DNA from: a virus
Taxonomy: Duplodnaviria > Heunggongvirae > Uroviricota > Caudoviricetes > Herelleviridae
IMG/VR virus record: IMGVR_UViG_2706795462_000001
DNA length: 64,000 nucleotides
Direction: 5' to 3' (one strand)
Position 1 is the first letter of the stretch, and each line of letters starts with the position of its first letter. The position numbers and the translations under genes are program-made. Below the pieces are notes generated by a model that made no database searches, was not told where the DNA came from, and saw only the letters and a program-made list of their open reading frames with translations. Below are positions 533-46,083 of the stretch, one piece after another.

Positions 533-1116
533 ATGGAGTATGAAAAAATGATTAAAGAGATAATGATAAACTCTAAAGAAATGTCATTAGAAGATAAAAA
601 ACATTTGTAAGAAGTTTAGCTACACAAGAAACAGACAGAGTAAAAAGAAACTATTGTAAAGATAAAAATATTAAGTTAATAGAAATAGATGCAAGAAAAA
701 CATCTTTATACTATATCTTAAATAGTATAAATTATACAGAGCTACTTAGCATACTAGAGATAAGAGAAGAAAATATTAGAGAACTACTTTATAAGTATAG
801 ATTAACGGAATCAGATAATAACATAATAAAAGAATTTAATAAATGCAGAGTATATAATGAGACAGCAAGAATGTTAGGTATAGATAATTACAGAGTAAGA
901 AGTACAATAGAAAAATATGGATTAGAATATAAGTTACTATCTAAAGAGAAAAAAGCTATTAAATGTACTACGGTAAATAAAATTTTTAATAGTATACAAG
1001 AAGCTAAAGATTGGTGTGGATTAACTTCTAATGGTTTAGAGAAAGTATTATCAGGTGAGAGGAAATATGCAGGTAAGTATAAAGGACAATATTTAGAATG
1101 GGAATATGTTGACTAA
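533..1116 (+). CDS. DNA-binding protein with homing-endonuclease-type C-terminal region, interrupted by 1-nt frameshift in A6 run at 593-598
   Basis: RBS AAGGAG then ATG 533; MEYEKMIKEIMINSKEMSLEDKK stops at 607. Frame of ORF 871..1116 is open upstream to 601 (TFVRSLATQETDRVKRNY...). One extra A at 593-598 would join the two. C-terminus FNSIQEAKDW..GLTSNGLEKVLSGERKYAGKYKGQYLEWEYV resembles homing-endonuclease DNA-binding tails; no GIY-YIG/HNH motif seen. Confidence 0.4.
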
Positions 1117-1578
1117 TGAATCAGATATACCTAGAGAATAATATTCTAGAACCTAGGAAAACTTTTATGTGCCCGTCTCGTTCAATCACTCACTACCGAC
1201 TTCCCTAACTATGTATTCTATAGTTATAATATTCATTTATTATACAATACTTAAACTATAGTATTGTAACCTTAATCTATACTGAAGCGGTATTAATCTA
1301 TTGTTATTATATAATAATCTTATATAATGGCGGTATAATCTAGGTTATTACATTAGAATCATTCTAATCTAGAATTTTAATCTTTAGACCCTAGGAAAAG
1401 TGGTACTAAAATATAGAACCCTATAGGTATGGGATTCTTATTTTTAAAATTACTAAAAAGTATTAGGTTTTCCCTAGGGTAAAGTTTTAATGTACCTAAA
1501 ATCGTAAGTAGCTCCTTATCATTTAGGTCTGTTTAATTGAGAATATTAGAAGATATCCGCTTCAATTACAATTAAAGG

Positions 1579-1607
1579 TTGACAACTATGAAGCGGTATG
1601 TTATACT
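1579..1607 (+). promoter_or_regulatory. sigma-A-type promoter TTGACA-N17-TATACT (Chi heptamer in spacer)
   Basis: Hexamers read directly. Confidence 0.45.
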
Positions 1608-1718
1608 TAGTATTGTAGGGGTGGTTCCCTACAGACCTAGACTATGGTCGTGATTTTGGTTTGCATATTAGTGTCATTCATAACCTCTATTCCAGTAGGG
1701 GTTATTTTTATTTAAGTG

Positions 1719-1747
1719 TTGACATACTCTAAGTAGTATGGTATGAT
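1719..1747 (+). promoter_or_regulatory. sigma-A-type promoter TTGACA-N17-TATGAT upstream of gene 1762
   Basis: Hexamers read directly. Confidence 0.5.
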
Positions 1748-1761
1748 TAGTATATAAGGAG

Positions 1762-2067
1762 ATGAATAATATGATTGATATATACTTAGGGGAAAACTAT
1801 AATACTGATTACTTATCTACTATTATGAATATTATAAAGACTTCCGCTTCAAGAGAGTTAAGTTATGGGTTTAATAATAAAGAAGCGGATGTAAATATAG
1901 AGGATATGAAGTATGAAGGTGATGTTCTGCATGTATATGGTACGATGTCTATGGATTATCCAGGCTGTATTATTATATGTATTACTAGAGATGAGACTAA
2001 GGTTATACATGGTGGTAACTTTCTAACAGGTACAGGTCTTAGTCAAGAAGTTAGAGAAAAATTCTAG
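1762..2067 (+). CDS. hypothetical early protein, tandem paralog family A (member 1)
   Basis: RBS TAAGGAGATGA; N-terminus MIDIYLGENY..TSASRELSYGFN shared with 4 downstream paralogs. Confidence 0.65.
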   Translation: MNNMIDIYLGENYNTDYLSTIMNIIKTSASRELSYGFNNKEADVNIEDMKYEGDVLHVYGTMSMDYPGCIIICITRDETKVIHGGNFLTGTGLSQEVREKF

Positions 2068-2078
2068 GGGGAGTTATT

Positions 2079-2249
2079 ATGATTATACCATTAATTATAT
2101 TCATGATGACCTTCGGTACATTTGCATTCAGTTATGTTGCACATGATGCATACAAAGTAGATGAAAAAGGTATCATGTATGCTATGGTAGTTGGTATTGT
2201 AGTTATAAATGGGATTGGTTTAGAAATGATAATTGTAGAATGTTTATAA
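2079..2249 (+). CDS. small hydrophobic membrane peptide (53 aa)
   Basis: RBS AGGGGGAG then ATG; MIIPLIIFMMTFGTFAF.. with two hydrophobic segments. Confidence 0.4.
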   Translation: MIIPLIIFMMTFGTFAFSYVAHDAYKVDEKGIMYAMVVGIVVINGIGLEMIIVECL

Positions 2250-2262
2250 AGGAGGTAGTAAA

Positions 2263-2448
2263 ATGATAGGTCAAATTATACTATTAGCTATTGTTAGTAT
2301 AGTTACAATAGGTTGTGTAGGATTATTTTTCTATGAGACGTTCAAGAGTATTAAGTATGATGCTAATGATAAAATCTTTATGATTACTGGGAGTATATTA
2401 ATGTTAGTTATTATCGTTAGTGGTGCATTAGCTATACTTGGCATTTAG
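2263..2448 (+). CDS. small membrane protein (61 aa)
   Basis: RBS AAGGAGGTAG then ATG; two TM-like segments. Confidence 0.5.
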   Translation: MIGQIILLAIVSIVTIGCVGLFFYETFKSIKYDANDKIFMITGSILMLVIIVSGALAILGI

Positions 2449-2716
2449 AGCTCATTTAAGAAGCGGTTAAGTAGTTCATGATAAATTGGTCTAGAAATAT
2501 ATGACCGCTTCTCTATGGAAGGCTGAGAGGGTTTAGAATTGAAAGGAGAGATATAATGGCTATATTTTTTAGTATTTTATTATTGATTAACATATACTTA
2601 ATATACTATGAATGTACTTCAGTTACGTTTGATTGGTGTGCACTGCTTATTTACGTATGCTCATTATGCTCTTGTATTTATTTAATAGTATATTTTGTAT
2701 AAAAGGAGGAGATATA

Positions 2717-3031
2717 ATGCAAGCAACTATATACTGTGCTAATAGGTATAGTAAAAATACATTAAAGAGTCTTTTAGAAAAATTAGAAGCGGAGAATAGA
2801 AACTTAACATATAGTACTGACATATCAGATATGGAGGAAGTGGATGTTATTGTACAACACACTGACTTATCTTTTGCAGAGTTAATGGATTCTTGTGATA
2901 GAGTAAGTAAAGGGTCTGACCGCTTCCAAGTATTTGTAGGTAATCACGCAGGGTATTATATAAACGGTGATTTATATATTAACGAAGTAGGTAAGTTTAT
3001 TGTACCTAGGAAAACGAATATGATGATGTAA
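2717..3031 (+). CDS. hypothetical early protein, paralog family A (member 2)
   Basis: Start moved to ATG 2717 after RBS AAAGGAGGAG; MQATIYCANRY..NRNLTYSTD aligns with the family. Confidence 0.6.
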   Translation: MQATIYCANRYSKNTLKSLLEKLEAENRNLTYSTDISDMEEVDVIVQHTDLSFAELMDSCDRVSKGSDRFQVFVGNHAGYYINGDLYINEVGKFIVPRKTNMMM

Positions 3032-3043
3032 GGAGGAAATATA

Positions 3044-3334
3044 ATGATTCATATATTTGTAAAAGAGGATTATAATAAAGAAACATTAAGGAGTTTACTT
3101 GAATATATTAATGATACTGTAGGTAGGGAATTAACTTATGGTATTAATACAGACTATGATAAGGATGTAGTGATTGAAACCGATGACCCTATAGATGAGG
3201 AGAATACGATTGATTTATCAAATCTTCCTCACTTTAAAGATGACTTATGTATTCTTATAGAAGAATTATACTGTAAGGCATTTGTTAATGGGGAACCTAT
3301 TATTATACGTAAGTATGTAGAGGGGATGTTATAA
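3044..3334 (+). CDS. hypothetical early protein, paralog family A (member 3)
   Basis: RBS AAGGAGGAAAT; MIHIFVKEDY..GRELTYGIN. Confidence 0.65.
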   Translation: MIHIFVKEDYNKETLRSLLEYINDTVGRELTYGINTDYDKDVVIETDDPIDEENTIDLSNLPHFKDDLCILIEELYCKAFVNGEPIIIRKYVEGML

Positions 3335-3621
3335 TGATTATAATATTTTTAACTGAAAAATATGATGCCAAGGCTTTAAAGAAAGTATTAGAACATATTG
3401 ATAATTGTAGTAGCAGAGGTCTTAGCTATTTAATGGGAAAAGGAGAAGCGGATGTATGTATAGAGAAGAATGTATTCAGAGAAAGAGATGATGTAAGGAT
3501 TAACTCAAACATTATTGATGAAGGTAAACTTTGTATACTCATAAATAAAAATGGTTTAGAATGTAGTTACTATAGAGGTGTATCATGTAATATTGGTGCC
3601 TTTGTAAAGGAGAGATTATAA
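3334..3621 (+). CDS. hypothetical early protein, paralog family A (member 4)
   Basis: MIIIFLTEKY..SSRGLSYLMGKGEADV; start overlaps preceding stop. Confidence 0.65.
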   Translation: MIIIFLTEKYDAKALKKVLEHIDNCSSRGLSYLMGKGEADVCIEKNVFRERDDVRINSNIIDEGKLCILINKNGLECSYYRGVSCNIGAFVKERL

Positions 3622-3914
3622 TGATAGAAATATATCTCAGTGAAAACTATGATAGGGATTTACTCAAAGCAGAATTAAAATGGATTAAAGAGACCGCTTC
3701 AAGAGAACTAACTTATGATGTTAATAGAAGCCCAGGATTAGATGTACATATTAGTCCTTTTAGATATACCAAGGATGAGGTTGAAGAAATGAGCTTACAT
3801 CCTCAGTTTGAAGATGATGTATGTGTATTTATAGCTGAAACATGGATACATGAGTATCGTAATGGTAAATCAATAGGTGTAGATAGTATGGAAGAATATG
3901 TAAAGGAGATGTAA
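3621..3914 (+). CDS. hypothetical early protein, paralog family A (member 5)
   Basis: MIEIYLSENY..TASRELTYDVN; RBS AAAGGAGAG. Confidence 0.65.
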   Translation: MIEIYLSENYDRDLLKAELKWIKETASRELTYDVNRSPGLDVHISPFRYTKDEVEEMSLHPQFEDDVCVFIAETWIHEYRNGKSIGVDSMEEYVKEM

Positions 3915-3917
3915 TTA

Positions 3918-4166
3918 ATGGTAGAAACTTATTATACAGTATATCATAAGAATAGTATGAAAACTATTAAGGATTACTTAAGTAGAAGTGATTTAATTGA
4001 CTTCTTATATAAGACTTGGCATAAGGATATAAGTAATATATACCCAACAGATTATACTACGTATGAAACAAAATTCTGTATAGACATAGATGTAGTTAGA
4101 TTAATTGAAGCGGTTAATGAAGAAGGTGTATTACTTATTAATGAAGGTAATATTGTAGAGTGGTAG
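3918..4166 (+). CDS. hypothetical early protein, paralog family B (member 1)
   Basis: RBS AAGGAGATG; ..TYYTVYHKNS.. motif shared with next two genes. Confidence 0.6.
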   Translation: MVETYYTVYHKNSMKTIKDYLSRSDLIDFLYKTWHKDISNIYPTDYTTYETKFCIDIDVVRLIEAVNEEGVLLINEGNIVEW

Positions 4167-4178
4167 GAGGAGATAAAT

Positions 4179-4418
4179 ATGAGTCAGTTTTTCACGTATA
4201 CAGTGTATCATACAGAAACAGCTAAAGTAGTAGCTAAGAATTTGTTTGATGCATCATTGGTGCACCTTATTAACAAGATGATAGAGAAAGATATAGTTAA
4301 GGATATTAATTTAGAATATTACATGAATACACGTGGTGTAGTTATAGATATGAGTAGACTACTGGATGATATAGAATCACAGGGTGTATTTCTATTCAAA
4401 CGTAAGCTACATGGATAA
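4179..4418 (+). CDS. hypothetical early protein, paralog family B (member 2)
   Basis: RBS GGAGGAG; MSQFFTYTVYHTETAKVVA..; about 40 percent identity by eye to 4530..4769. Confidence 0.65.
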   Translation: MSQFFTYTVYHTETAKVVAKNLFDASLVHLINKMIEKDIVKDINLEYYMNTRGVVIDMSRLLDDIESQGVFLFKRKLHG

Positions 4419-4451
4419 TAGGTTAGACCCTAAAAAGTTTGAGATACAATA

Positions 4452-4497
4452 GGATGCTTAGGATAATAGGATAAAAATAACTTAGGATGCTTAGGAT
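4452..4497 (+). repeat. Direct repeat GGATGCTTAGGAT x2 (plus extra TAGGAT copies) in the intergenic region
   Basis: Copies at 4452-4464 and 4485-4497. Confidence 0.7.
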
Positions 4498-4529
4498 GAA
4501 ATACGATACGATAGGGAGGTTAAGTTAAG

Positions 4530-4769
4530 ATGCAAGAGTTAATAACTTATATAATTTACCATAAAGAATCAGGTAAAGTAGTAGCACAGGATTTAAGTGA
4601 ATTAGAAACTATTGAACTTATATACAAAATGATAGAAGAGGGATTAGTAAAAGATATAGAATTATCTAACTACCGTCTTTTTAGTGGGAATATAGATATA
4701 CTTAACTTATTAGTAGACATACGTAAACAAGGTATATTTGATTTTGAACATACTTGGCACACAAGATAA
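4530..4769 (+). CDS. hypothetical early protein, paralog family B (member 3)
   Basis: RBS GGGAGG; MQELITYIIYHKESGKVVA.. paralog of 4179..4418. Confidence 0.65.
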   Translation: MQELITYIIYHKESGKVVAQDLSELETIELIYKMIEEGLVKDIELSNYRLFSGNIDILNLLVDIRKQGIFDFEHTWHTR

Positions 4770-4780
4770 GGAGGGATAGG

Positions 4781-5125
4781 ATGATAGTTATATATTCAGA
4801 TGAGTCTAGGGATTACTTAAGAGATGAGTTCTTACCTTGGCTTAATGATAGAGATAGATATTTAAAATATTATAAGAATGAGTTACCTGAAGATATAGAC
4901 TCTTCTTATGTTGTATCAGTTGTATACTGTAGGGATATGGAAGGTCTTATGAATAGGAAAGATATTCTTATTGGTAATAGTTATAGAGAGCCTGTAGCTG
5001 TATTAGGTGTTCCTGAATTTTTTGGTAACTATTCTAATTATTACTATTATAAAGGAGAGCATATAAGTAAGCATGACCTAGGAGAGATAATTAGGTTAAA
5101 GGCTTGGCAACGTAATTTTGACTAA
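4781..5125 (+). CDS. hypothetical early protein
   Basis: RBS AAGGAGGG 4768-4775 then ATG 4781 (MIVIYSDESRDY..); ORF-track start 4754 lacks an RBS. Confidence 0.55.
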   Translation: MIVIYSDESRDYLRDEFLPWLNDRDRYLKYYKNELPEDIDSSYVVSVVYCRDMEGLMNRKDILIGNSYREPVAVLGVPEFFGNYSNYYYYKGEHISKHDLGEIIRLKAWQRNFD

Positions 5126-5204
5126 GTAGCTCTCTCTAATTTCACTAAGTAGCTCCCTAGGAATTGCCTAAGTAGCTCGGTGTGATTTTACCCTAAGTAG
5201 CTCC
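5123..5204 (+). repeat. Four direct copies of CTAAGTAGCTC at 22-25-bp spacing (iteron-like)
   Basis: Starts 5123, 5145, 5168, 5193. Confidence 0.8.
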
Positions 5205-5325
5205 CTCTGTTTTCTATTAGTTTATTTTAACCGCTTCACGTGTCTATATATAGACAATCGGAATAATAGCAGACCGCAAAAAGAAATACACTAGGATATT
5301 ATTCCCAGTGTATTGTATAATTTTT

Positions 5326-5664
5326 TTATAGAATATTTATAACATTGTATTCAAATTCATTTACTTCATGTTGTGATTTAATTAAATTTTTAATTAATCC
5401 GTTTTGTGTTTTATAGTCTTTTACTAGTTTTTCATTTTCTATAATTAAATTATTAAATTCTTCTTTTGTTGTATCCTCATCTACATAAAATTTACTTTCA
5501 TATATTTCATAATATTTTTTATCTGTTCCGTTATCAATATCATCTGATATTTGATAATTTTTGAATACAATTTCTTTTGTTTCTAATTCATTTACTAATA
5601 ATTGTGATTTTGCATATTGTAATACGTCTTCATTGTCCCACATTGGAATATAGTTTATTTTCAT
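5326..5664 (-). CDS. hypothetical protein (only minus-strand gene inside the plus-strand early block)
   Basis: 112-aa ORF; flanked by the CTAAGTAGCTC iterons (5123-5204) and promoter 5875-5903. Confidence 0.5.
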   Translation of the reverse strand: MKINYIPMWDNEDVLQYAKSQLLVNELETKEIVFKNYQISDDIDNGTDKKYYEIYESKFYVDEDTTKEEFNNLIIENEKLVKDYKTQNGLIKNLIKSQHEVNEFEYNVINIL

Positions 5665-5874
5665 TTAAATCAAATCCTTTTCTATAATTTTTTTATATAA
5701 TATTTGTAGAAGCGGTTGGGGTTTGTCCCTTGCCTTACTACACTTAATATATTACAGTATAGTTATTCAGAAGTCAATACTTTTGAGTAACTTTTTTTTA
5801 AATTCTTTTTTCTTCTATATAATAGTAGTTTTTAGCCCTAAAAAAAGTTTTTTAAAAGAATTTACATTTTCTTA

Positions 5875-5903
5875 TTGACTTATTAATCATATGATAGTAA
5901 TAT
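5875..5903 (+). promoter_or_regulatory. early promoter TTGACT-N17-TAATAT with upstream A6GTTTTTTAAAA tract
   Basis: Same architecture as the other promoters in this family. Confidence 0.55.
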
Positions 5904-5976
5904 AAAGGTACAGCAAGAGAACAGCAACAAGGTATTAGAATTATATAAAAAAATTATTTAATTGGAGATGATTTAA

Positions 5977-6285
5977 ATGGATGTAAAAGAAATTGCAGAC
6001 ACTATAATGGAGTTGTGGCAAATGGACGGATACAGATGTACAGAACCGCCATTATATGAAAGCACATTAAACCACACACGCACATATACGGCTTTAATCG
6101 TAAGCATTAAGGGAAACTATGACACTGTTCAAATGTTCCGTAAAACGCCTATAATGAGCATGAGAGGGCAAGCGCAACCGGCTAGCATGTTAGTAAATGT
6201 AATTGATGACGTGATTATAATCGTATATGAAAATACGGTTTACGGGGTACAGAATAAAGAAATAAAATTTATTGAAGAAATTTAA
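5977..6285 (+). CDS. hypothetical early protein
   Basis: Promoter 5875-5903 and RBS TGGAGATGA upstream; 102 aa. Confidence 0.6.
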   Translation: MDVKEIADTIMELWQMDGYRCTEPPLYESTLNHTRTYTALIVSIKGNYDTVQMFRKTPIMSMRGQAQPASMLVNVIDDVIIIVYENTVYGVQNKEIKFIEEI

Positions 6286-6384
6286 AAATAGGGGTTGCAA
6301 TACCCCTTAAGATGTAGTAATATAATAGATGTAAGGGATAGCAACACACCTTAAAAAACTTTTTAAAAAAGTTAAAGAAAAGTG

Positions 6385-6413
6385 TTGACACCTTACAAGA
6401 TACATGTTAATAT
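6385..6413 (+). promoter_or_regulatory. early promoter TTGACA-N17-TAATAT with upstream AAAAAACTTTTTAAAAAAG
   Basis: Family member. Confidence 0.6.
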
Positions 6414-6490
6414 TAGTATAGAAGTTAAGACAAGCCACATAGCAAATAACGAAATTAAATAAAAAAATTATAGAATAGGATTTGATTATT

Positions 6491-6778
6491 ATGACAAACA
6501 AAAATTACTTATACGAAGAAACTCACACAGTACAAGGGCAAGACATTACGGCTTTCAGAATTCCAAATGACACAAACGGCAACCCACGTTATGTAGTGCA
6601 TTTCATGGATTTAGACATTAAACTAGCAGACTATGACAACATCAATAAGCTATACGGATTTAAAAAATATACTGCTAAATGGTTTGGCGGTGGTGTAGTA
6701 TTCCAAAGCTATAATATTGAAGATACATTAAATTACGCACTATCTAATGTTAAAGAAATAGAAGCGGTTAAGAATTAA
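6491..6778 (+). CDS. hypothetical early protein
   Basis: Conserved cassette AGGATTTGATTATTATG; ATG 6491 (MTNKNYLYEE..); promoter 6385-6413. Confidence 0.6.
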   Translation: MTNKNYLYEETHTVQGQDITAFRIPNDTNGNPRYVVHFMDLDIKLADYDNINKLYGFKKYTAKWFGGGVVFQSYNIEDTLNYALSNVKEIEAVKN

Positions 6779-6827
6779 AACCGCTTCTGAATTAAATAAA
6801 AAAATTATATAAAAAGGATATGATATT

Positions 6828-7019
6828 ATGAAATTTAAAATAGAAAAAAATAACAGTGATATAAAAACTTTATGGAATTTAGCTAAAAATGGATATATGA
6901 GTTATCAAACTGTACACAATATATTTAAAAATGAATCAGATGAATTTATTATATTTAACAGTAAACAAACTTATAATAAATTTATGGAATTAAGATATAA
7001 TAGAAGTGCAATTCAATAG
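6828..7019 (+). CDS. hypothetical early protein (63 aa)
   Basis: RBS AAAGGATATG; followed by terminator 7039-7075. Confidence 0.5.
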   Translation: MKFKIEKNNSDIKTLWNLAKNGYMSYQTVHNIFKNESDEFIIFNSKQTYNKFMELRYNRSAIQ

Positions 7020-7038
7020 TATAAAAAAGTTATATAAT

Positions 7039-7075
7039 TCCCTAGGATTAAATTCCTAGGGATTTTTATTTGTTT
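7039..7075 (+). terminator. rho-independent terminator
   Basis: TCCCTAGGA-ttaaat-TCCTAGGGA hairpin plus T-run. Confidence 0.6.
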
Positions 7076-7126
7076 TAATTTATATAAAAAAATTATTTAA
7101 TAAATAAATTAGTGTAAAATTGACTG

Positions 7127-7156
7127 TTGACAAGGTTGTATTTTTTATGGTATAAT
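7127..7156 (+). promoter_or_regulatory. promoter TTGACA-N18-TGgTATAAT (extended -10); no protein gene downstream
   Basis: Consensus hexamers; downstream is a repeated non-coding cassette. Confidence 0.5.
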
Positions 7157-7215
7157 GAAGTGAAGACCTTTTTTAGTATAAAAAAATTATTATATAAAAA
7201 ATTTATATTAAATGG
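7127..7215 (+). repeat. Non-coding cassette (promoter + GAAGTGAAGACCTTTTTTAGTATAAAAAAATTATTATATAAAAAA), copy 1
   Basis: Near-duplicate of 8730-8820. Confidence 0.6.
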
Positions 7216-7536
7216 TTTTAAAACCGCTCTTTCTCCCCACCTTGTCATATTTATAGTGGAAGGGTTAGGCGGGTTACCACTGTTTTACTTTCTATATATA
7301 GTATACTATGAATAATGGTAATTGTCAACACCTTTCAGAAACTTTTTTTACTTTCTTTTATTATTATATAAAAAAATTATACATATTTTAGGGCTCCACT
7401 TCCATTATATAATAATTCGGTCTTAATGTCAATACTTTTATTCAAAAAAGTTTTTTAAATTAATTTCAACAAATCTATTGACTTATGTTTTTTTCTATAG
7501 TAATATATAGGTATACCAACAAGGGAGGCAATACAA

Positions 7537-7695
7537 ATGCTAAAATTTAAATGGAAAAACAAAACAATCAAATCAACTCAAAAAACGGATAACATTATTT
7601 TACTTCTTATAGGTGGTTTAGTTGCAACAGTCACGCCTAAACTTGTAAACTGGTTTTTACTACTACAAGATAATATAAATATTTTTTTAAGATAA
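7537..7695 (+). CDS. small membrane peptide (52 aa)
   Basis: RBS AAGGGAGG then ATG 7537; MLKFKWKNKTIKSTQKTDNIILLLIGGLVATV.. Confidence 0.4.
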   Translation: MLKFKWKNKTIKSTQKTDNIILLLIGGLVATVTPKLVNWFLLLQDNINIFLR

Positions 7696-7698
7696 CTA

Positions 7699-7727
7699 TT
7701 GACAACTTAGAAACAACGTGTTAATAT
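7699..7727 (+). promoter_or_regulatory. early promoter TTGACA-N17-TAATAT
   Basis: Family member. Confidence 0.55.
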
Positions 7728-7794
7728 TAAGATACAAGGTAAGGGAAGCGGTTGACCGCTTCCGACCTAAATAAAAAAAAGTTTAAAAAAACTA

Positions 7795-7823
7795 TTGACA
7801 GTCACTTGAAACCATGATATTAT
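7795..7823 (+). promoter_or_regulatory. early promoter TTGACA-N17-TATTAT with upstream A8GTTTAAAAAA
   Basis: Family member; gene 7863 follows. Confidence 0.6.
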
Positions 7824-7862
7824 TAAGATAACAAAAAACAAACAGAAAAGGAATTGATTATA

Positions 7863-8186
7863 ATGAAATTTATCAAAACTATCGAAAACTTATTAGAAAA
7901 AGCAGAAAACAAAGGGCAAGCAATTTTAAACGGTCGTTACTTTGACGGGTATAGCAAAGGTGAGCTTGAGGAAAAATATGCAATTGAAATTGATGGCAAC
8001 AAATTGATTATGCGTCACTGGGGTACACAAACAATTGAGATTGACTTAAGCATAAATGAGATTGTTTCATATTACGGTGAAAGCAATTCAGACCGTGACA
8101 GTTTAAACACACTTGTATATTGCTTAGGAATTGCGCCAAACTTTAGATACTTACCAAGCAAAAACTTATTCATTTACGAAAATTAA
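7863..8186 (+). CDS. hypothetical early protein
   Basis: Promoter 7795-7823; cassette AAAGGAATTGATTATAATG; ATG 7863 (MKFIKTIENL..). Confidence 0.65.
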   Translation: MKFIKTIENLLEKAENKGQAILNGRYFDGYSKGELEEKYAIEIDGNKLIMRHWGTQTIEIDLSINEIVSYYGESNSDRDSLNTLVYCLGIAPNFRYLPSKNLFIYEN

Positions 8187-8199
8187 TTAAATAAAGGGC

Positions 8200-8228
8200 T
8201 TGACTTCCAAGCCCTACCATGTTATTAT
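8200..8228 (+). promoter_or_regulatory. early promoter TTGACT-N17-TATTAT; -35 inside hairpin 8195-8215
   Basis: AGGGCTTG/CAAGCCCT stem encloses the -35. Confidence 0.6.
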
Positions 8229-8285
8229 TAAATTGTAAGGTAATCAAGCACAACGACAAAATAAACTGAAAAGGAATTGATGAAA

Positions 8286-8666
8286 ATGTTCAAATTACAA
8301 AATAAAGTGGAAATTATCGTACCTAAGGAAGATAACAACGGCGTTGAGATTGCAGACAAACGTATTAAAGAATATGTAAATAGCATCACAATGGAAGCGG
8401 GCGGTTGTACTATTACAGAAATTAAAGGGCAATGGTACTCAGAAGATGAAAAACGTATAATGGAAGATAACAACTTAAATCTTGAGTGGTATTATCTGCA
8501 AGACAGTGCAAAATTCATGACAGTTGAATTAAAAGGTATTGTAAGACGTTTAATTGAAGTTTACGGACAAGAGGCTATCAGTATCAAAGTTAATGGCACA
8601 TTGTACATTGTAGACCAATCAGACATTGAAGAATTACACACAACATTATTAAATATCATGAAATAA
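8286..8666 (+). CDS. hypothetical early protein
   Basis: Promoter 8200-8228; cassette AAAGGAATTGATGAAAATG (start 8280 or 8286); terminator 8679-8715 downstream. Confidence 0.65.
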   Translation: MFKLQNKVEIIVPKEDNNGVEIADKRIKEYVNSITMEAGGCTITEIKGQWYSEDEKRIMEDNNLNLEWYYLQDSAKFMTVELKGIVRRLIEVYGQEAISIKVNGTLYIVDQSDIEELHTTLLNIMK

Positions 8667-8678
8667 AAAATTTATATA

Positions 8679-8715
8679 AACCGCTTCGTATTAAATTCTT
8701 GAAGCGGTATTTTTG
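8679..8715 (+). terminator. rho-independent terminator whose stem arms are Chi heptamers (AACCGCTTC / GAAGCGGT)
   Basis: 9-bp stem, 13-nt loop, then ATTTTTGT. Confidence 0.6.
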
Positions 8716-8729
8716 TGTAAAATTTATGC

Positions 8730-8758
8730 TTGACAAATGTATTAAAAAATGAGATAAT
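8730..8758 (+). promoter_or_regulatory. promoter TTGACA-N17-GATAAT followed by a repeated non-coding cassette
   Basis: Hexamers read directly. Confidence 0.5.
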
Positions 8759-8820
8759 AGAGTGACGACTTTTTTTAGTATAAAAATAATATTATATAAA
8801 AAAGTTATAGAGTTTTTAGG
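8730..8820 (+). repeat. Non-coding cassette, copy 2 (promoter + GAGTGACGACTTTTTTTAGTATAAAAATAATATTATATAAAAAAG)
   Basis: Near-duplicate of 7127-7215; TAGGGCTCCANNTCCATTATAT element also repeats at 7388 and 8815. Confidence 0.6.
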
Positions 8821-8988
8821 GCTCCAAGTCCATTATATCAATTTTGCTACTAGTTGTCAATACTTTCTTTTTTTATATAATAATTTAATTATCTTAAAGA
8901 TACCGTCCACCTCCATTATCTCAAATTTTGCCCCTAAAGTCAAGAACTTTCTTTCAAATAATTTATTTAAAAAAGTTTACAAAAAGGG

Positions 8989-9017
8989 TTGACTTATTTT
9001 GTACTATGGTGTAATAT
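8989..9017 (+). promoter_or_regulatory. early promoter TTGACT-N17-TAATAT
   Basis: Family member. Confidence 0.5.
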
Positions 9018-37403: not shown

Positions 37404-38890
37404 CTATTTGAATACTCCCCAAGCAACCCCAGGTATATGATTAGGTGGAACTCCTTGACAAGTTCTAACAGGGCAATATACTCTGTTACCATTGTAAGCA
37501 TTGTAACCTATCCAAATGTGACCTGCTTGGATACAAACTTCGTCATATACAATTGTAGCTCCTGCCGGTAAGTTACCTCCTACTGGAGCATTTAAGAATG
37601 GAGAACCTATTCTAGTTACTATAGGTTGGTTACCATTAACAAATGTTGCATTTTCCGGTTTGTACCAAGTTCCGTACTGGTTCTTTTTCCAAGAGCCTGT
37701 TACTGGTCTAGTTGCCGGTGTACTTGCGCTACTTGTTTTACCGTCTTTAACTACTGTAGAACTTGAAGTTCCTTTATCCATGTAGTTTTTAATTTGTTTA
37801 ATGAAATAATCTTTTAGTTTATTCATTATTGCTTGAGATGGTCTTCCTTGTGTTACTGGATTAAATCCTGTATGAAGAACCATAGAACGATGAGGACAAG
37901 CTGTTGGAACAAATTCCATATGCAATCTTACAGTTTTACGATTAGGAGTAAGACCCCATTCTTTAAATTTCTCTGCAGTAAATTGGAATACTGCTTGTTC
38001 GTTTTTAAGGAATTGAGCATCACTAGCACTCATTGATTGACAGACTTCAATACCTGCAAATCTAAAGTTACCTGAGTTTGCTCCTGTTCCATCTCCTGTG
38101 TGCCAAGCAATTTGATTCTTAGCATCTATTGCTTCCCATACATAACCTTCAGAGCCATAGTAATGAGCAATACCATTAGCATATCTAGCATAACCTGCGT
38201 TAGCTAATGAATTCTCGTATTGTTGCCCTGAAGAACGACCTGCATCGTTGTGTATTACCATTCCTTCAGGTTTCTTACCACGTTTATCCATTGTATAGTT
38301 AATATGGTTCTTAGAAACTTTTAGTGTTGCTTTCTTTTTAGGTGCAGGTGTTTTACTTGCACTTTTCTTAGCTGTTTCTTTTTTAACAGTAGTTCCTGCT
38401 TTTACAGGTATCTCAATAAAATGAGTTAATCCGTAATAATTATCTACACGTTTTGTAGGTTTTTTATTAGCGTAACCGTTCCAGTTTTGCTCTAAAATAG
38501 TAAATGTAGAAGTATTACCTCCATCATATACAATACCTATGTGACCCCATTGCTGATAACTACCGGATGTAAATACAGCAATCCACCCTTTTTAGGTACT
38601 GTAGAAGGTTTATTTTCATGTATTTTAAATCCAGTACCATAACTTTGTTTGATTTGGTCTTTAGCATTACCCCAAGTTCTAACTTTATTATCTGTTAACC
38701 ATAATACATAATCAGTAATTAAGTCTTGGCACTGTGCATGATAGTAACCATCTGCGTCAATTGCTCCTGCTTCCATTACACCAAACGATGGGTCATAGCT
38801 TGTAGCTTTTTTAATTCTATAAGGACTGTCTACTGTACCTTTTGCATAAGCGTCTAAACGTTTATTTATTTCTGCTTGAGTCTTAGCCAT
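37404..38890 (-). CDS. lysK: endolysin LysK-type (CHAP + amidase_2 + SH3b), intron-less, interrupted by 1-nt deletion near 38585
   Basis: ORF 38537..38890 is the CHAP N-terminus ([25 protein letters not shown]..) ending ..PKKGG. The intervening 38292-38590 translates in the frame of ORF 37404..38291 as [75 protein letters not shown] recall phage K LysK as ..PKKGWIAVF.., so GGTTGG appears as GGTGG here. Confidence 0.85.
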
Positions 38891-39393
38891 TACTTAACTT
38901 CCTCCTCTGCAAATACTTTACCGTGTTCCTCGGTATCTTCTTCATCTTGAGAAGGTGCTGAACCACCATCAATTTCATCTTCAATAGCAGGTACTTCATC
39001 ACTATCATCTGTATCAGGTTCTGCATTGTTTTCGTAGTTGTCTAATTCGAAAGTGCTAGCTGTGTTTGCATTTGCTTGCCATTGAACAAATTCATTAGGG
39101 TCTTTACTATCACGAGGTTTTATATAATCTGTTTGAACAATATCACTATCTTTAAGACCTTTAGTATTGTTATCAACAATAATACCTAAACCTGCTAATA
39201 ATGTTAATATAGAACCTATGATATTTACACCTTGCTCAATTTGAGCTGAGTAATCTAAACCAAAAGCACCTGTAATTTGATTAGCAAATACTGCTACTGC
39301 TGATATAATTGCTACCCAAAATGTTTTACTCTTAGTTCTTGTGCTAAGGTTTATTCCTCCAACAACTTTAGGTTGTTTAGTTTCATTAGCCAT
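38890..39393 (-). CDS. holin
   Basis: 167 aa; hydrophobic segments then acidic tail; immediately upstream of the lysin; matches my recollection of the phage K holin ([36 protein letters not shown]..). Confidence 0.8.
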
Positions 39394-39477
39394 TAAAAAA
39401 CCGACCTTTCTATTATATTTATTTCTAACAATAATATAACAGTAGGTCGGTCATGTTTATCTATATTAATTTAACAC

Positions 39478-39663
39478 TTACTCATTAATTTGATTTAGTT
39501 TTTTGATAACTTCAGACATTTGTTTGTTATCTAAATCTTCTAATTTAGTTTCAGGTAATAACTCTAATTTATCCCAAACTTCTTCTTTATTAGATACTTT
39601 ATTATTAATAATTGCCTTACCAACTAAACTTTCCGTATAATATAATTGCTTTGCTGATGCCAT
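39478..39663 (-). CDS. hypothetical small protein
   Basis: 61-aa ORF; terminator-like hairpin 39404-39455 downstream. Confidence 0.4.
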   Translation of the reverse strand: MASAKQLYYTESLVGKAIINNKVSNKEEVWDKLELLPETKLEDLDNKQMSEVIKKLNQINE

Positions 39664-39864
39664 TTGTATCTCTCCTTTTAAATATGTAAAGTATATAGCT
39701 AGTATCGTATCCTAGGAACAAACACTTGCGCTATATACTCAATGAAACTCTACCCTCATTCGAGGACACAGCAAACCGATTCGTCAACCGCACATGTGAA
39801 TTCTCAAGTTTCATTTATGTAACACACCCTCTTTGATTTGCACAAAGACTAAGGGTGTTTATTA

Positions 39865-39937
39865 TGGTTTCTATTGGATTTGAACCAATGACACCTAGAG
39901 CTTCAATCTAGTGCTCTACCATCTGAGCTAAGAAACC
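39865..39937 (-). tRNA. tRNA-Phe (GAA)
   Basis: Hand-folded: GGTTTCT acceptor, D-arm GCTC-AGATGGTA-GAGC, anticodon arm CTAGA-TTGAAGC-TCTAG, T-arm CATTGG-TTCAAAT-CCAAT; 73 nt. Confidence 0.8.
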
Positions 39938-39943
39938 TTGTAA

Positions 39944-40017
39944 CGACTCATACGAGACTCGAACTCGTACTCTCTGCCGTGACAGGGCAGTGTGTTAACC
40001 AGTTACACCAATGAGCC
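39944..40017 (-). tRNA. tRNA-Asp (GTC)
   Basis: Hand-folded: GGCTCAT/ATGAGTC acceptor, D-stem GTGT/ACAC, anticodon arm CTGCC-CTGTCAC-GGCAG, T-arm ACGAG-TTCGAGT-CTCGT; 74 nt. Confidence 0.8.
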
Positions 40018-40174
40018 AAAATAAATGCTATACCCTAACCTTACCTTAATGTATAGCAGGTTTTCATATAAGCTCGAAGCAACGATTATTACCACTCATA
40101 ACAACTATATATTAAGTGAAAGGAGGTGAAATGAACAAAACGTGGTAATTGGTACTTATATAGGAAGTATGTAT

Positions 40175-40266
40175 AATCTACAAGGAGTAAGTTATTGGTT
40201 CATAAAGGAGTGTGAACAATAAATACATGAAAGAGTGAAAGTCTACTCCTTGTAGATTCTTTTTTA
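40175..40266 (+). repeat. Perfect 15-bp inverted repeat (AATCTACAAGGAGTA / TACTCCTTGTAGATT) with 54-nt loop, followed by T7
   Basis: Arms 40175-40189 and 40244-40258. Confidence 0.8.
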
Positions 40267-41168
40267 ATTATCAATCAAAGGAGGAAACTGATAATTGTTA
40301 ATAATAAACTATAAAGAGGAAAATATTTATAGTCACATTCTGATATAATGCAACTAAATATCCAAGCATAACCCGTCTCACGAGGAACCTACCTATAAGA
40401 CCTGTTATTAAGTGAATCACTACGATTGACTCTATTAAGGAGCTACCTTAAGTCCATCTCACGCAACTTAAAAGGGACTTACAAACCGTATAACGGCAGT
40501 AAGTTTATTAAATAATGTGATATTAACATATTAGTTAATAACTTTCACATGGTCGAAGAAAAGTAAATTTATTTGATTTCCAAATTATTTTTATCAAATA
40601 TAGCTTCTTTTGAACCTGTAGATTTATGCTACTCATACTGATAACCTCTATTATCTAACACATTTCTGTGCTCCAACTACAGTTAGTCGTTACAGCGTAT
40701 CTTTCTAGGATTCCGCTAAGACCCTAGAAAGAAATTAAACCCTAGCCGTTATCATACTCTACAGACCTTATAAGTAAGTACCAAGTATACCAATCGTATT
40801 TAACAATACTAATGACGACCCATCCTACCGATATATTTCCGATAGGTTTTGATTCGTTTGATTATCTTGTACCTTATGACTACCAAATCATTATTCAGTC
40901 ACTATGCTCAGATATTTAGTTGTATTATTATATATTAATTATAACATAATTTTTAGTACTTGTCAAGTTAATTTTAAAAAAATTATAGAAGTAAGATAAA
41001 ATTCTTACTTCCAATTAAAATTATAAGGATGATACACATTGTTATTGTTTAAACTGGAAAACAATGTAAGAAAAAACAGTGATGTGTAAGGTATTTGTTT
41101 TATTGTTAATTACATTATAGCATATACTGATACCTTTGTCAAGTTAATTTAATACTTTTTTTAAAATA

Positions 41169-41387
41169 TTAGTTATCTTTTGTTAGTTCTTCCTGAATAG
41201 CATCCCATCTTCTTTCTGCTTCACTACGATTATCTTCTATATGTTTTGTAGTTTTACAACATTTGATACAGTATATATCTTTGATATGACCTTCTTCTCT
41301 TTTATTTGCTCTTTTTCTTGGTACTTTGAATACATTACCACATTCTTTACATATTAAACTTGAGTAAAACATTTTTTGTCTTTTCAT
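41169..41387 (-). CDS. zinc-ribbon small protein
   Basis: CKECG..(38)..CIKCC four-Cys arrangement; 72 aa basic. Confidence 0.5.
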   Translation of the reverse strand: MKRQKMFYSSLICKECGNVFKVPRKRANKREEGHIKDIYCIKCCKTTKHIEDNRSEAERRWDAIQEELTKDN

Positions 41388-41487
41388 AATTAATCAATTC
41401 CTTTTCTTGTTTTATTTGATAATTTAACTATATACTATATTGATAAATAAGTCAACAGTTTTCTAAAAATAATTTAAATTATTTTGA

Positions 41488-41812
41488 AGAATCCTTTAAT
41501 ACCAAGGGTTACAAGAGAAAAAGTACGTATTTAGAAAATAAGGAGTACTCCTATTATATATAATTATATTCTGATATAAGTAATTAATAATATTAAATAT
41601 ATAATTATAATTAATAAGGTTGGGAAAATTGAATTAAATATAATCTGATACTCGGTAAAACTACTCAATATAGAAGTAAAATCCTTTAGTATCAGTACTT
41701 ACAGACAAAAAAGTACGTATTTAGAAAATAAGGAACTCTCCTATTATAGTTATATATACTTATTAATTATTATTAATTACTATCTAAATATATAATTATA
41801 ATTAATAAGGTT
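41488..41812 (+). repeat. Two tandem copies of a roughly 125-bp unit with 190-192-bp period
   Basis: AATCCTTTA-TA..AAAAGTACGTATTTAGAAAATAAGGA..TAAATATATAATTATAATTAATAAGGTT at 41488-41632 and 41680-41812. Confidence 0.8.
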
Positions 41813-41867
41813 AGAGAGTCAACAAAAAGACAAATAAAAAAGTGACTACTTAAAGTCACTTGTTAAT

Positions 41868-42077
41868 TTAAAAAACTATTTTAAATGATTCAATCATTCT
41901 TGGGTTAATATAAATTAAACTAGAACTAGCATCTTCAGTTGTATTAACTTTTATTGATGCTGAATCAGAACCACTAATCATATAGTCTATATCTTTTCTA
42001 GTGTAACCCTTTTCGTCAGATGATACTAAAAAATATTTAGCACCACTTAACATTGTTATTTCAATATGTTTTGACAT
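41868..42077 (-). CDS. hypothetical protein
   Basis: 69-aa ORF. Confidence 0.45.
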   Translation of the reverse strand: MSKHIEITMLSGAKYFLVSSDEKGYTRKDIDYMISGSDSASIKVNTTEDASSSLIYINPRMIESFKIVF

Positions 42078-42089
42078 CTACAATCTCTC

Positions 42090-42422
42090 CTATGCAAATT
42101 TGTTAAAGACAAAGGATAGTATAGCACCTAGAACGAGTAAAAGAACCTTCTCAGTAGTATCCTTCTTCCTAGTATCTTTAGTTTTTGTACTTTCAGCAAG
42201 TTCTGAAATCTTTTCATCAAGTCTTTCTAATTGGACGTAAATTGCTGATTGTTTTTCACTATTGACAGCTACATCTTTATCTATACTAACTATCATTTTT
42301 CTTAGTTCAGCTACCTCAACTTCTAAATCTTTGAAAGTTCCTCTATCTATATAATTACCTTCTTGTATCTTAGACTTAATAGTTTCTACTTGAGAAACAA
42401 GGTTGTTTATCTCCTTATCCAA
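42090..42422 (-). CDS. coiled-coil protein with C-terminal TM anchor
   Basis: 110 aa; heptad-rich region then hydrophobic C-terminus. Confidence 0.5.
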   Translation of the reverse strand: MDKEINNLVSQVETIKSKIQEGNYIDRGTFKDLEVEVAELRKMIVSIDKDVAVNSEKQSAIYVQLERLDEKISELAESTKTKDTRKKDTTEKVLLLVLGAILSFVFNKFA

Positions 42423-42434
42423 CTAGAATCACCT

Positions 42435-42761
42435 CTAAGGTCTAACCGTTTCAGATTCAGAATGGATATCATAATTTTCTAAGAAATCATTGATAATCTC
42501 CATATAATTATCCGTAACGACTTTTCCGTAAGATGTTTTTGTATCAATTTCAAACCTAAGCTTACCAAAACTTTGGAGGTCTAATTCTTTTATTACAATA
42601 TTAGGGTCATCAGAAGGAAGGTAATAATAGTCGAAGTATATAATTGAGCCATTTATTAATACTCTGTCTATTCTATAGACGTGGAAATAGCGTCTGTCTC
42701 TTTTAAAATGGGCTAGTGCATCTTTAAACTCTAACTTAAGGATATCCTTATATTTAGTCAA
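42435..42761 (-). CDS. hypothetical protein
   Basis: 108-aa ORF. Confidence 0.5.
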   Translation of the reverse strand: MTKYKDILKLEFKDALAHFKRDRRYFHVYRIDRVLINGSIIYFDYYYLPSDDPNIVIKELDLQSFGKLRFEIDTKTSYGKVVTDNYMEIINDFLENYDIHSESETVRP

Positions 42762-42793
42762 AGTGGTAACCTCCTTACTATTAATTTTTAAAT

Positions 42794-43060
42794 TTACTTA
42801 TTTTGTGGTATAATAGTTATGATAAAGGCAGTTATTATAATTATATTAAGAATAATGATAATAATTATTTTTTCTGAGAAAATAAGCCAAATACTAAAAA
42901 CAGATAAAGCATAGATAGCTGATAGATATACTATATTAAGAGTTACCTTACTTTTATCTTCTTTATAGATAGAATAACCTAAAGACGTTGTAACACCACT
43001 AAGTATAAAATAATAGAAACAAAAAAGAGGTATAGACAGAAAAAAAGATACGATAATCAT
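42794..43060 (-). CDS. small integral membrane protein
   Basis: 88 aa, three hydrophobic helices; first gene of the leftward transcript from divergent region 43061-43200. Confidence 0.5.
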   Translation of the reverse strand: MIIVSFFLSIPLFCFYYFILSGVTTSLGYSIYKEDKSKVTLNIVYLSAIYALSVFSIWLIFSEKIIIIIILNIIIITAFIITIIPQNK

Positions 43061-43200
43061 TGTTAAACACCTATTTCTTTTTGACCTATTATTTATAGAA
43101 CTTTTAGATTACACCACTAATATAACATTAAAAGCCAGTCATAAAAGTCAATTGTTAGATTAATAATATAATAAAAAAAGACAATAGGAGGTTAAAGTGG

Positions 43201-43587
43201 TTGAATAATAACATAGCTATATTCATATTCAAAACACTGGTTATCATTATATTCTTACTACTAATTTTGTCTGTTATTAATTCCTTGTCCCTTATTTATT
43301 CAATAAGACCGAGTGTAGTTATGACATACTTTATATTTGGTGGTATTGTTTCTAATGTCGCACTTACTATAACAGATAAGTTCTTACTGAAGAAAGAAGA
43401 CCCCCTACCTGAATATGTTCTTAAAAAAGTAGAGATAAATGATAAAGAAATAAGAATAATCAAGAAAATCATAGAAAGTAACTACGGTATAACAGCAGAA
43501 GAGATAAAAGTTAGGGCTAAAGCACAAAGAAGAATAGAGGAAGATAGTAAAAAGGAAGATTACGATGAAAACAAAGAAAGAAATTAA
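43201..43587 (+). CDS. membrane protein (N-terminal TM helices, charged C-terminus)
   Basis: RBS AGGAGG; first gene of the rightward morphogenesis block. Confidence 0.55.
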   Translation: MNNNIAIFIFKTLVIIIFLLLILSVINSLSLIYSIRPSVVMTYFIFGGIVSNVALTITDKFLLKKEDPLPEYVLKKVEINDKEIRIIKKIIESNYGITAEEIKVRAKAQRRIEEDSKKEDYDENKERN

Positions 43588-43843
43588 AGAACAAAGGAAA
43601 GAGCTTAAGGATGGTGCTACATCTGTTTCTTTAGTAAAAAAAGGAGATAAGAGAATAGCTAGCCCTAGTAGAATTTGTAGCCTATGCGGTCAGCAGTTAT
43701 CAGGTATGAATTACACTAAAGGAAAAGCATTATCAAAAGTTAATCATTTTCATTTACAGTATTCTAAGTATATTTATTTTGATATTTGCGCAGATATCAA
43801 CAATTGTTATAAGAATTTAAGAAAAAGAGGTGAAATGGATTGA
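43565..43843 (+). CDS. hypothetical basic protein with CxxC pair (position suggests possible terminase small subunit)
   Basis: RBS AAAAGGAAG inside the upstream gene end; CSLCGQQ; position directly upstream of terL. Confidence 0.4.
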   Translation: MKTKKEIKEQRKELKDGATSVSLVKKGDKRIASPSRICSLCGQQLSGMNYTKGKALSKVNHFHLQYSKYIYFDICADINNCYKNLRKRGEMD

Positions 43844-44250
43844 GTGCAGAAAATATTAGAGATATAATTAACAAGAAAAAGTTAGAAGAAGAGGATACAA
43901 GAAAATATATAGCTGATGGATTTATGAATGGTATAGGTAAATTAATGTATGAATTCAATAAAAAAGTAGATAATAAAGAAATAGAAGTTAAAGACCCTAA
44001 TGATTTATATAAACTATTCGTGATATTCTCTCAAATGCAAAATATGGTTAATGAAACTTCTGAAGGTGGAGCAATACCTCAGCTATCTAGACCTCAGCAA
44101 GAATTATTTGACGAGATTACAACAGAAGATAGTAATGGAGAATCTACAGTTGATTTACAGAAGATACAAGAAATGACAGCAGAAGATATTACAGCAATGA
44201 TTTCTGAAAAAGAAAAAGTAATGAATGAGGAAAATTCAGAAACATTCTAA
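43840..44250 (+). CDS. hypothetical acidic protein (TTG start)
   Basis: RBS AAGAGGTGA; TTG overlaps previous stop. Confidence 0.5.
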   Translation: MSAENIRDIINKKKLEEEDTRKYIADGFMNGIGKLMYEFNKKVDNKEIEVKDPNDLYKLFVIFSQMQNMVNETSEGGAIPQLSRPQQELFDEITTEDSNGESTVDLQKIQEMTAEDITAMISEKEKVMNEENSETF

Positions 44251-44264
44251 GGAGAAAGATATAA

Positions 44265-46083
44265 ATGGATGGAAAAGAACTAATTAAGATAGCACAAGAA
44301 ACATTTCAAACTGAAAAAATAACAAGAGAACAGATAGACCATATAATCAATATGTTAAACCCTTCTACCTATATGCTTAAGTATCACACACTAAGAGGAC
44401 ACCCTATAACTTTCAGCATTCCTAATAGAGATAGAAGTAAAGCACAGGCTCATAGACCATGGCAAACTAGGATTGTAAACGATACTCATCCTAATAAGGC
44501 TGTAATAAAATCACGTCAGTTAGGTCTTAGTGAGATGGGTGTAATGGAAATGGTTCATTTTGCAGATATGCATAGTTATGCCAATGCAAAGTGTTTATAC
44601 ACATTCCCTACAAATGAACAAATGAAAAAAATTTGTTCAGTCTCGTTTGAACCCTGTATTAGAAAAAGAATATTTTAGAGATATTGTTGATTGGGATAAA
44701 GACTCTTTAGGTTTTAAAAAGATAAGAAACTCTAGTTTATTCTTTAGAACAAGTTCTAAAGCAAGTACTGTAGAGGGTGTGGATATTGACTACTTATCCT
44801 TAGATGAGTATGATAGGGTAAACTTATTAGCAGAGTCATCTGCATTAGAGTCAATGTCTTCATCACCTTTTAAGATTGTGAGAAGATGGAGCACACCATC
44901 TGTACCCGGTATGGGTATACACAAATTATATCAACAATCTGACCAATGGTATTATGGTCATAGATGTCAACATTGTGATTATTTAAATGAAATGAGTTAT
45001 AATGATTACAACCCTGATAATCTTGAAGAAAGTGGGAATATGTTATGTGTTAACCCTGAAGGTGTAGATGAACAGGCTAAAACAGTACAGAATGGTAGTT
45101 ACCAATTTGTTTGTCAAAAATGCGGTAAACCACTAGATAGATGGTATAATGGTGAGTGGCATTGTAAGTACCCTGAGCGTACAAAAGGTAATAAAGGGGT
45201 ACGAGGATACCTAATAACACAAATGAACGCTGTATGGATTTCTGCTGATGAATTAAAAGAAAAAGAAATGAATACAGAATCTAAGCAAGCGTTTTACAAT
45301 TATATTTTGGGTTATCCATTTGAAGATGTTAAACTGAGAGTTAATGAAGAAGACGTTTATGGTAACAAATCACCTATTGCAGAAACACAATTAATGAAAC
45401 GAGATAGATATTCTCATATAGCTATTGGTATAGATTGGGGAAATACTCATTGGATAACTGTTCATGGTATGTTACCTAATGGTAAGGTAGACTTAATACG
45501 ATTATTCTCTGTTAAAAAGATGACAAGACCTGATTTAGTTGAAGCAGATTTAGAAAAAATCATTTGGGAAATATCTAAGTACGACCCTGATATTATAATT
45601 GCAGATAACGGAGATTCAGGAAACAATGTTTTAAAACTCATTAATCATTTTGGAAAAGATAAAGTGTTTGGATGTACTTATAAATCTTCTCCTAAATCTA
45701 CAGGACAGTTGAGACCCGAATTTAATGAGAACAATAATAGGGTTACAGTAGATAAATTAATGCAGAATAAAAGATATATACAAGCACTTAAGACAAAGGA
45801 TATAAGTGTTTATAGTACAGTAGATGATGATTTAAAAACTTTCTTAAAACATTGGCAAAATGTTGTTATTATGGATGAAGAAGATGAAAAAACTGGAGAA
45901 ATGTATCAAGTTATTAAACGTAAAGGTGACGACCATTATGCACAAGCAAGTGTTTATGCCTATATCGGATTAACAAGAATAAAAGAACTTCTTAAAGAAG
46001 GAAATGGTACAAGCTTCGGTTCTACATTTGTTTCTACTGATTACAACCAAGAAGGAAATAAACAATTCTACTTTGATGAATAG
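44265..46083 (+). CDS. terL: terminase large subunit (Terminase_6 / T4 gp17-like), interrupted by 1-nt insertion in A7 run 44625-44631
   Basis: ORF 44265..44678 (..VIKSRQLGLSEMGVM.., the terminase ATPase motif) and ORF 44647..46083 overlap in different frames. Reading A7 as A6 gives ..TNEQMKKFVQSRLNPVLEKEYFRDIV.. as one roughly 605-aa protein. No intron-like insert. Confidence 0.8.

Follow-up and report, generated by a model that had tools for sequence, protein, structure and literature searches.

Split genes in the public genome record of Staphylococcus phage P108 are very probably sequencing errors and not features of the phage

The 64,000-nucleotide (nt) stretch of the IMG/VR virus record IMGVR_UViG_2706795462_000001 analysed here, called the window throughout, carries several phage genes that are each spread over two open reading frames (ORFs), among them those of the large terminase subunit (terL) and of the endolysin. 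Do these breaks belong to the phage, as decayed, recoded or interrupted genes, or do they belong to the record? An initial annotation, made from the sequence alone, had favored systematic homopolymer error of the nanopore, Ion Torrent or 454 type. The comparison with related genomes and the documented origin of the sequence, Ion Torrent reads assembled with Newbler 2.8 (PMC13200134), bear this out: the insertions and deletions (indels) responsible are private to the record, and the split genes are very probably base-calling or consensus errors in a deposited genome, that of Staphylococcus phage P108, and not features of the phage itself.

The identity of the DNA was established first by megablast, which returned a single-piece 100% match between window positions 35000-46500 and phage P108 (KM216423.1 / NC_025426.1; Kayvirus, Herelleviridae). 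The window corresponds to the final 64 kb of the P108 record, positions 76808-140807, and a record position is obtained by adding 76807 to the window position; over window 1-47193, no difference from record 76808-124000 exists. According to section 2.11 of a 2026 paper on this phage (PMC13200134), the genome was read by IonTorrent and assembled with Newbler v.2.8. The same source equates KM216423 and NC_025426 with this Ion Torrent sequence of P108, and the platform is a flow-based one, as a homopolymer artefact demands. It also describes P108 as viable, with a latent period that lasts 20 min and a burst size of 83, and as lysing 95 of 120 isolates; none of the six gene products identified by mass spectrometry and named in its text originates from a split gene (PMC13200134). 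The RefSeq annotation of P108 displays the breaks directly, with two coding sequences in the window labeled 'terminase large subunit', two labeled 'endolysin' and two labeled 'transglycosylase'.

The homologous regions of about 63-66 kb were taken from six Kayviruses (GH15, K, qdsa002, PSU2, ESa1 and SYL). All indels of the window were listed against each of these relatives and the local alignments were then inspected. The ORFs of the relatives were also searched against the window using tblastn, with automated detection of frameshifts from two high-scoring segment pairs. This detection catches mid-gene breaks only and is blind to breaks located in the first few codons, which were therefore checked by alignment and one-base repair. 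Two kinds of apparent frameshift were discarded. An automated flag at ~18157 resulted from a spurious ORF over the tRNA-Met gene, and the paired indels at 9883/9886, 20277/20279, 21027/21035 and 63481/63483 fall in diverged stretches, where substitutions or mosaic segments produce them in the alignment.

Nine genes of the window are split by a one-base indel private to P108, and the seven of them that the initial annotation had listed are intact in all six relatives. Five of these indels are insertions and four are deletions, as the initial annotation had said that both occur. One-base edits at the nine sites restore ORFs that align end-to-end with those of SYL, PSU2 and GH15 at 97-100% identity, and the sequence located 3' of every break displays no decay. 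In terL (44265-46083, plus strand), the A7 run at 44625-44631 is A6 in the relatives, and the extra A produces ORFs of 137 and 478 amino acids (aa). Removal of one A yields a 605-aa ORF identical over 605/605 residues to its homologues in SYL, PSU2 and GH15. A single in-frame ORF is found at this site in all six relatives and in at least 55 further records, and the A7 allele is limited, among the 60 phage records matching a 70-nt stretch around it, to the two P108 records and phage Baghdad. Neither the A6 nor the A7 allele was matched in an exact-pattern scan of IMG/VR.

In the endolysin gene (37404-38890, minus strand), a T5 run at 38589-38593, within an altered segment at 38586-38593, replaces the T6 of the relatives next to a T>C substitution. 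The break parts a CHAP piece (ORF 38537-38890) from a piece carrying the amidase-2 and SH3b domains (37404-38291), and Pfam recognizes Amidase_2 and SH3_5 in the latter, 295-aa product. Addition of one T restores a 495-aa ORF identical over 495/495 residues to those of SYL and PSU2. The gene for an IsaA-like transglycosylase (35302-35993, minus strand) has a single A at 35602 where all six relatives have AA, and a one-base repair restores a 230-aa product that matches SYL, PSU2 and GH15 at 230/230 residues. The NADAR-family gene (~16001-16491, minus strand) likewise reads A at 16191 where the relatives read AA. Its domain is cut cleanly between the frames, with Pfam profile positions 2-103 and 108-159 residing in separate fragments, and the repaired product of 164 aa matches SYL at 161/164 residues.

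Five further genes are split. A nucleotidyltransferase-like gene of 245 aa (19479-20217, minus strand) contains T7 at 20201-20207, in codons 5-6, where the relatives have T6; once repaired, it is identical to SYL at 243/245 residues. Two other minus-strand genes are broken in codons 2-4 by T8 runs. In the 72-aa gene (19075-19294), the run at 19284-19291 is T7 in PSU2, ESa1 and SYL and TATTTTT in GH15, K and qdsa002, and its repair yields 72/72 identity to PSU2. In the 152-aa gene (15086-15545), the run at 15532-15539 is T7 in PSU2, ESa1 and SYL, and its repair yields 149/152 identity to SYL. A 93-aa gene (~12439-12716, minus strand) has T at 12495, near its 3' end, where five relatives have TT, and its repaired product is 93/93 identical to SYL, PSU2 and GH15. 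Finally, a gene directly upstream of the portal gene (49260-49640, plus strand) carries A8 at 49515-49522 in place of the A7 of the relatives, and a one-base repair restores its 126-aa ORF. Among 223 matching records, this A8 is present only in the two P108 records, Baghdad and qdsa002.

The initial annotation had counted at least nine split genes and listed eight sites. Alignment to the relatives confirmed 15532-15539, 19284-19291, 20201-20207, 44625-44631 and the endolysin break placed near 38585. Two other breaks proved to be real but somewhat displaced: the NADAR indel had been located near 16204, and the transglycosylase indel had been assigned to the T5 run at 35596-35600, which is unchanged and merely adjoins position 35602. 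Seven of the eight listed sites are P108-private indels. The eighth, 593-598, is a gene junction that is discussed below, and the sites 12495 and 49515-49522 are new and bring the total to nine, the second lying outside the range seen in the initial annotation. The statement that the indels fall mostly in A/T runs of 5-8 bases holds for six of the nine; the other three are deletions in two-base runs.

If the indels arose during sequencing, genes and spacers should be affected alike, and about 10 further P108-private length changes were indeed found between genes. An intergenic run at 7773-7780 is A8 in P108 and A7 in all six relatives. Other changes consist of T8 for T7 at 11797-11804, A8 for A7 at 12417-12424, GG for G at 18157-18158, TT for T at 21110-21111, A5 for A9/A7 at 29192-29196, A7 for A9/A8 at 37364-37370 and A7 for A8 at 40976-40982. 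At 29478-29487, a C10 run stands in place of the CCTCC of all six relatives, which on the minus strand is the GGAGG ribosome-binding site of the gene at 29207-29470; no other run in the window, whose GC content is 30%, exceeds 8 bases. Among runs of at least 7 bases, 5/31 coding and 6/35 non-coding ones are altered (Fisher p=1), whereas runs of 1-4 bases are altered in only 5 of ~44,400 cases against 11/66 for those of at least 7. The underlying process is run-length dependent and blind to reading frame, and the equal coding and non-coding rates together with the intact downstream frames leave no footprint of selection. No A/T run of the P108 window exceeds 8 bases; the A9 runs of the relatives read A5 or A7, and of its nine 8-base runs, six have 7 bases in the relatives. 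Over the same region P108 has 15 strictly private indels, none of which is a multiple of 3, as compared to 0 in GH15, 0 in SYL and 2 in PSU2, an excess that is more than chance.

The damage is not restricted to the window. In positions 1-50000 of the P108 record, RefSeq splits into two or three pieces genes that are single in GH15, namely those encoding the tape-measure protein ('tail associated lysin'), a tail lysin, the DNA helicase, the primase and the DNA polymerase, as well as a 525-nt gene. The breaks coincide with one-base differences between P108 and GH15, for example A7>A8 at 4972, 10716 and 42362 and additional A's at 24744 and 33995. In addition, the P108 record is cut within the tape-measure gene. 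True breakage of all these genes and of terL is incompatible with the reported growth of P108, a viable phage with a burst size of 83.

Ion Torrent and 454 instruments miscall homopolymer lengths. In ion-semiconductor sequencing, a run of identical bases produces one signal, from which its length is misjudged by about one base. Newbler would have carried such miscalls into the consensus, and those falling in coding sequence would appear as frameshifts and lead gene callers to predict a pair of ORFs. The phage itself would then have run lengths like those of its relatives and intact genes, and its physical DNA presumably carries these lengths, as judged from the alignments. The P108 indels resemble known flow-sequencing error in being changes of ±1 base that cluster in long A/T runs, are private to this record and take no account of coding status, in the under-calling of long runs and over-calling of 7-mers, and in the documented platform. 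They are moreover missing in close relatives for which other sequencing methods were used, and the Illumina-sequenced SYL has no private indels.

A number of observations weigh against sequencing error as the sole cause. The true run lengths of P108 are inferred from its relatives. The coding indels at 12495, 16191 and 35602 occur in two-base runs and not in long homopolymers, the deletion in the endolysin gene is accompanied by a substitution, and the conversion of CCTCC to C10 is not a textbook flow error; in all three respects P108 differs from typical flow-sequencing data. The A8 at 49515 is also common to a second record, that of qdsa002. Some of the changes may therefore have arisen in assembly or consensus steps, or may be real, and the C10 run in particular may be of assembly origin or genuine. 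A few frameshifts in non-essential genes, such as NADAR and those of small hypothetical proteins, could be genuine, tolerated mutations.

Extended to all the breaks, this last idea would make the indels real inactivating mutations of the sequenced stock, carried by a defective or mutator sub-population or accumulated as damage during laboratory passage. The NADAR, nucleotidyltransferase-like, small hypothetical and transglycosylase genes are probably dispensable, and one true gene remnant does exist in the window, at 533-1116. However, terL, endolysin, DNA polymerase, helicase, primase and tape measure are essential, and yet the phage forms plaques with a burst size of 83; the identity of 97-100% 3' of the breaks leaves no room for secondary decay, and coding and non-coding runs are altered at an equal rate. 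General inactivation of the stock is therefore considered very unlikely.

The remnant itself is the locus where the initial annotation had seen a homing-endonuclease-like gene broken at an A6 run at 593-598. The region 533-1116 (plus strand) is instead the junction of two genes. In 0414_108-type Kayviruses, a 75-aa gene begins with 25 codons to which the ORF 533-610 is homologous, while 607-1116 (~510 nt) represents the final 170 codons of an unrelated gene, for a 365-aa endonuclease of the S25-3/Biyabeda type, joined out of frame. The A6 run lies at 596-601 and is also A6, in the same frame, in the 75-aa homologue from phage 0414_108, which rules out a homopolymer indel. One A added at this site would bring both parts into a single ORF of 194 aa, an arrangement supported by none of the relatives. 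The intact S25-3 homologue (365 aa) gives NUMOD-like, zinc-finger and PvuRts1I-like nuclease matches, all below the Pfam curated cut-offs. The region 533-1116 is, on the strength of these alignments, a natural deletion or recombination remnant of a free-standing endonuclease gene, and it is the only split locus that shows the degeneration or dispensability of a true pseudogene.

Another possibility, raised as an alternative in the initial annotation in the form of polymerase slippage, is that the indels are real and that slippage of RNA polymerase or ribosomal +1/-1 frameshifting restores TerL, the endolysin and the other proteins. Slippage is conceivable at five of the nine coding indels, which occur in A/T runs of 7-8 bases, and a change in homopolymer length shifts the frame in P108 just as it does in transcriptional slippage or phase-variable tracts. 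Programmed ribosomal frameshifting, as known for the tail assembly chaperone and dnaX, similarly involves overlapping ORFs one frame apart, sometimes at an A-rich run. A genuine and conserved case is present in the window itself: the tail (tape-measure) chaperone gene pair at 62565-63603, whose programmed frameshift is part of the ESa1 and K annotations, is the window's one true candidate for recoding. The sites of programmed frameshifting are nevertheless conserved across relatives, whereas the relatives of P108 all display a single in-frame ORF, with runs one base shorter or longer, and thus no conserved recoding site. A slippery sequence is available at six of the indels and is missing from 12495, 16191 and 35602, which are not in homopolymers. 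The P108 tracts are short (6-8 bases) and are found in essential genes and intergenic DNA alike, non-coding runs being altered equally often. Runs of 7-8 bases are shorter than those giving efficient transcriptional slippage. Recoding would also be needed at once in more than 12 essential genes genome-wide, yet the burst size is normal. Slippage of polymerase or ribosome fails because three coding indels lie outside homopolymers and because the runs of the relatives, differing by one base, are in frame, and it is regarded as extremely improbable. No more credence can be given to its restricted version, in which part or all of the A7/T8 runs, such as that of terL, are real and full-length proteins are made by transcriptional or ribosomal slippage. 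Were slippage true, a lytic Kayvirus would tolerate recoding in many essential genes.

Splitting by mobile insertions, group I introns or homing-endonuclease genes, as in lysK, polA and recA of K-type phages, has next to no probability: in phage K, the annotated endolysin consists of two pieces joined around an HNH endonuclease ORF, endolysin and DNA polymerase are annotated in two pieces in such Kayviruses as in P108, and the window does hold the homing-endonuclease remnant at 533-1116, but each P108 split amounts to a single base more or less in sequence that is otherwise collinear and near-identical, and nothing is inserted. These alignments refute insertions as the cause, and an Rfam gathering scan of the window found three tRNAs and no intron family.

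With sequencing error retained as the explanation, it is necessary to consider why some of the P108 indels recur in other records. The Baghdad record (OQ981145.1) differs from the window only by one substitution and by a gap of 60 nt. This gap corresponds to P108 record 102241-102300 (window 25434-25493), which is exactly one 60-base line, and the tRNA features of Baghdad keep P108 coordinates while its coding sequences are shifted by 120-180 nt. Baghdad is therefore ruled out as an independent confirmation of the indels, and its record is best explained, from these coordinates, as derived from that of P108. The P108 paper, in contrast, treats Baghdad as the closest relative and likely ancestor of P108 (PMC13200134). 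The qdsa002 record (KY779849.1) has 20 private indels, 15 of them in runs of at least 5 bases, versus 12 private single-nucleotide polymorphisms, and its prohead protease gene is split; it looks like a second error-rich record. A literature search for its sequencing platform found no primary paper. A reciprocal automated scan for frameshift-split genes was positive for P108 and qdsa002, gave a single case in GH15 and returned nothing for SYL, PSU2, ESa1 or K. In GH15, an AAA-ATPase gene (~21472-22551 of the GH15 stretch) has one frameshift relative to P108, PSU2, SYL and qdsa002, which may be a record error or a variant. Phage SYL was isolated on host strain XN108, as P108 was, and sequenced by Illumina NovaSeq with SPAdes assembly; its endolysin is intact, with 495 aa, and identical to the repaired P108 protein.

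The initial annotation had further suspected that the assembly collapsed the terminal repeat. The record indeed holds a single, internal copy of the long terminal repeat, at window ~1156-11871, where it was placed by homology to the repeat predicted by PhageTerm in ESa1 and to the annotated repeat of SYL. A single internal copy of this repeat is common in Kayvirus records. Larger differences between P108 and its relatives were recorded as well. P108 lacks 36 bp at 39847/39848 that are present in all six relatives between 9-bp direct repeats (ACTAAGGGT). This loss removes about half of the tRNA-Trp gene and leaves three tRNAs in P108 (Rfam gathering scan and ARAGORN) versus four in the relatives; the 36 bp could have been truly deleted or been lost by a collapse during assembly. 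At window ~17612-18172, a 1.85-kb lipase/acylhydrolase gene ('virion structural protein') of GH15 and qdsa002 is absent from P108, PSU2, ESa1 and SYL, which is a natural presence/absence polymorphism. A 21-nt in-frame insertion at 48549, in the gene 47575-48825, is common to phage K and absent from the other five relatives, and is probably a real repeat polymorphism.

The split genes are thus biologically ordinary, and their consequence is a practical one that operates through a flawed public reference genome. The published endolysin 'LysP108' (295 aa, YP_009099525.1; 37404-38291, minus strand) corresponds to residues ~201-495 of the 495-aa enzyme of the LysGH15/LysK/LysSYL type, and it lacks the CHAP domain because the frameshift in the record cuts this domain off. 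The LysP108 cloning paper leaves the endolysin site undecided, since its forward primer anneals 3' of the frameshift. As NC_025426, the record serves RefSeq as the exemplar for the species Kayvirus P108, and its errors have propagated: truncated proteins are inherited by protein databases, pangenome clusters and gene counts that use the P108 record, and Baghdad is a duplicate record repeating the same errors. Correction of the P108 record by resequencing would remove these inherited truncations.

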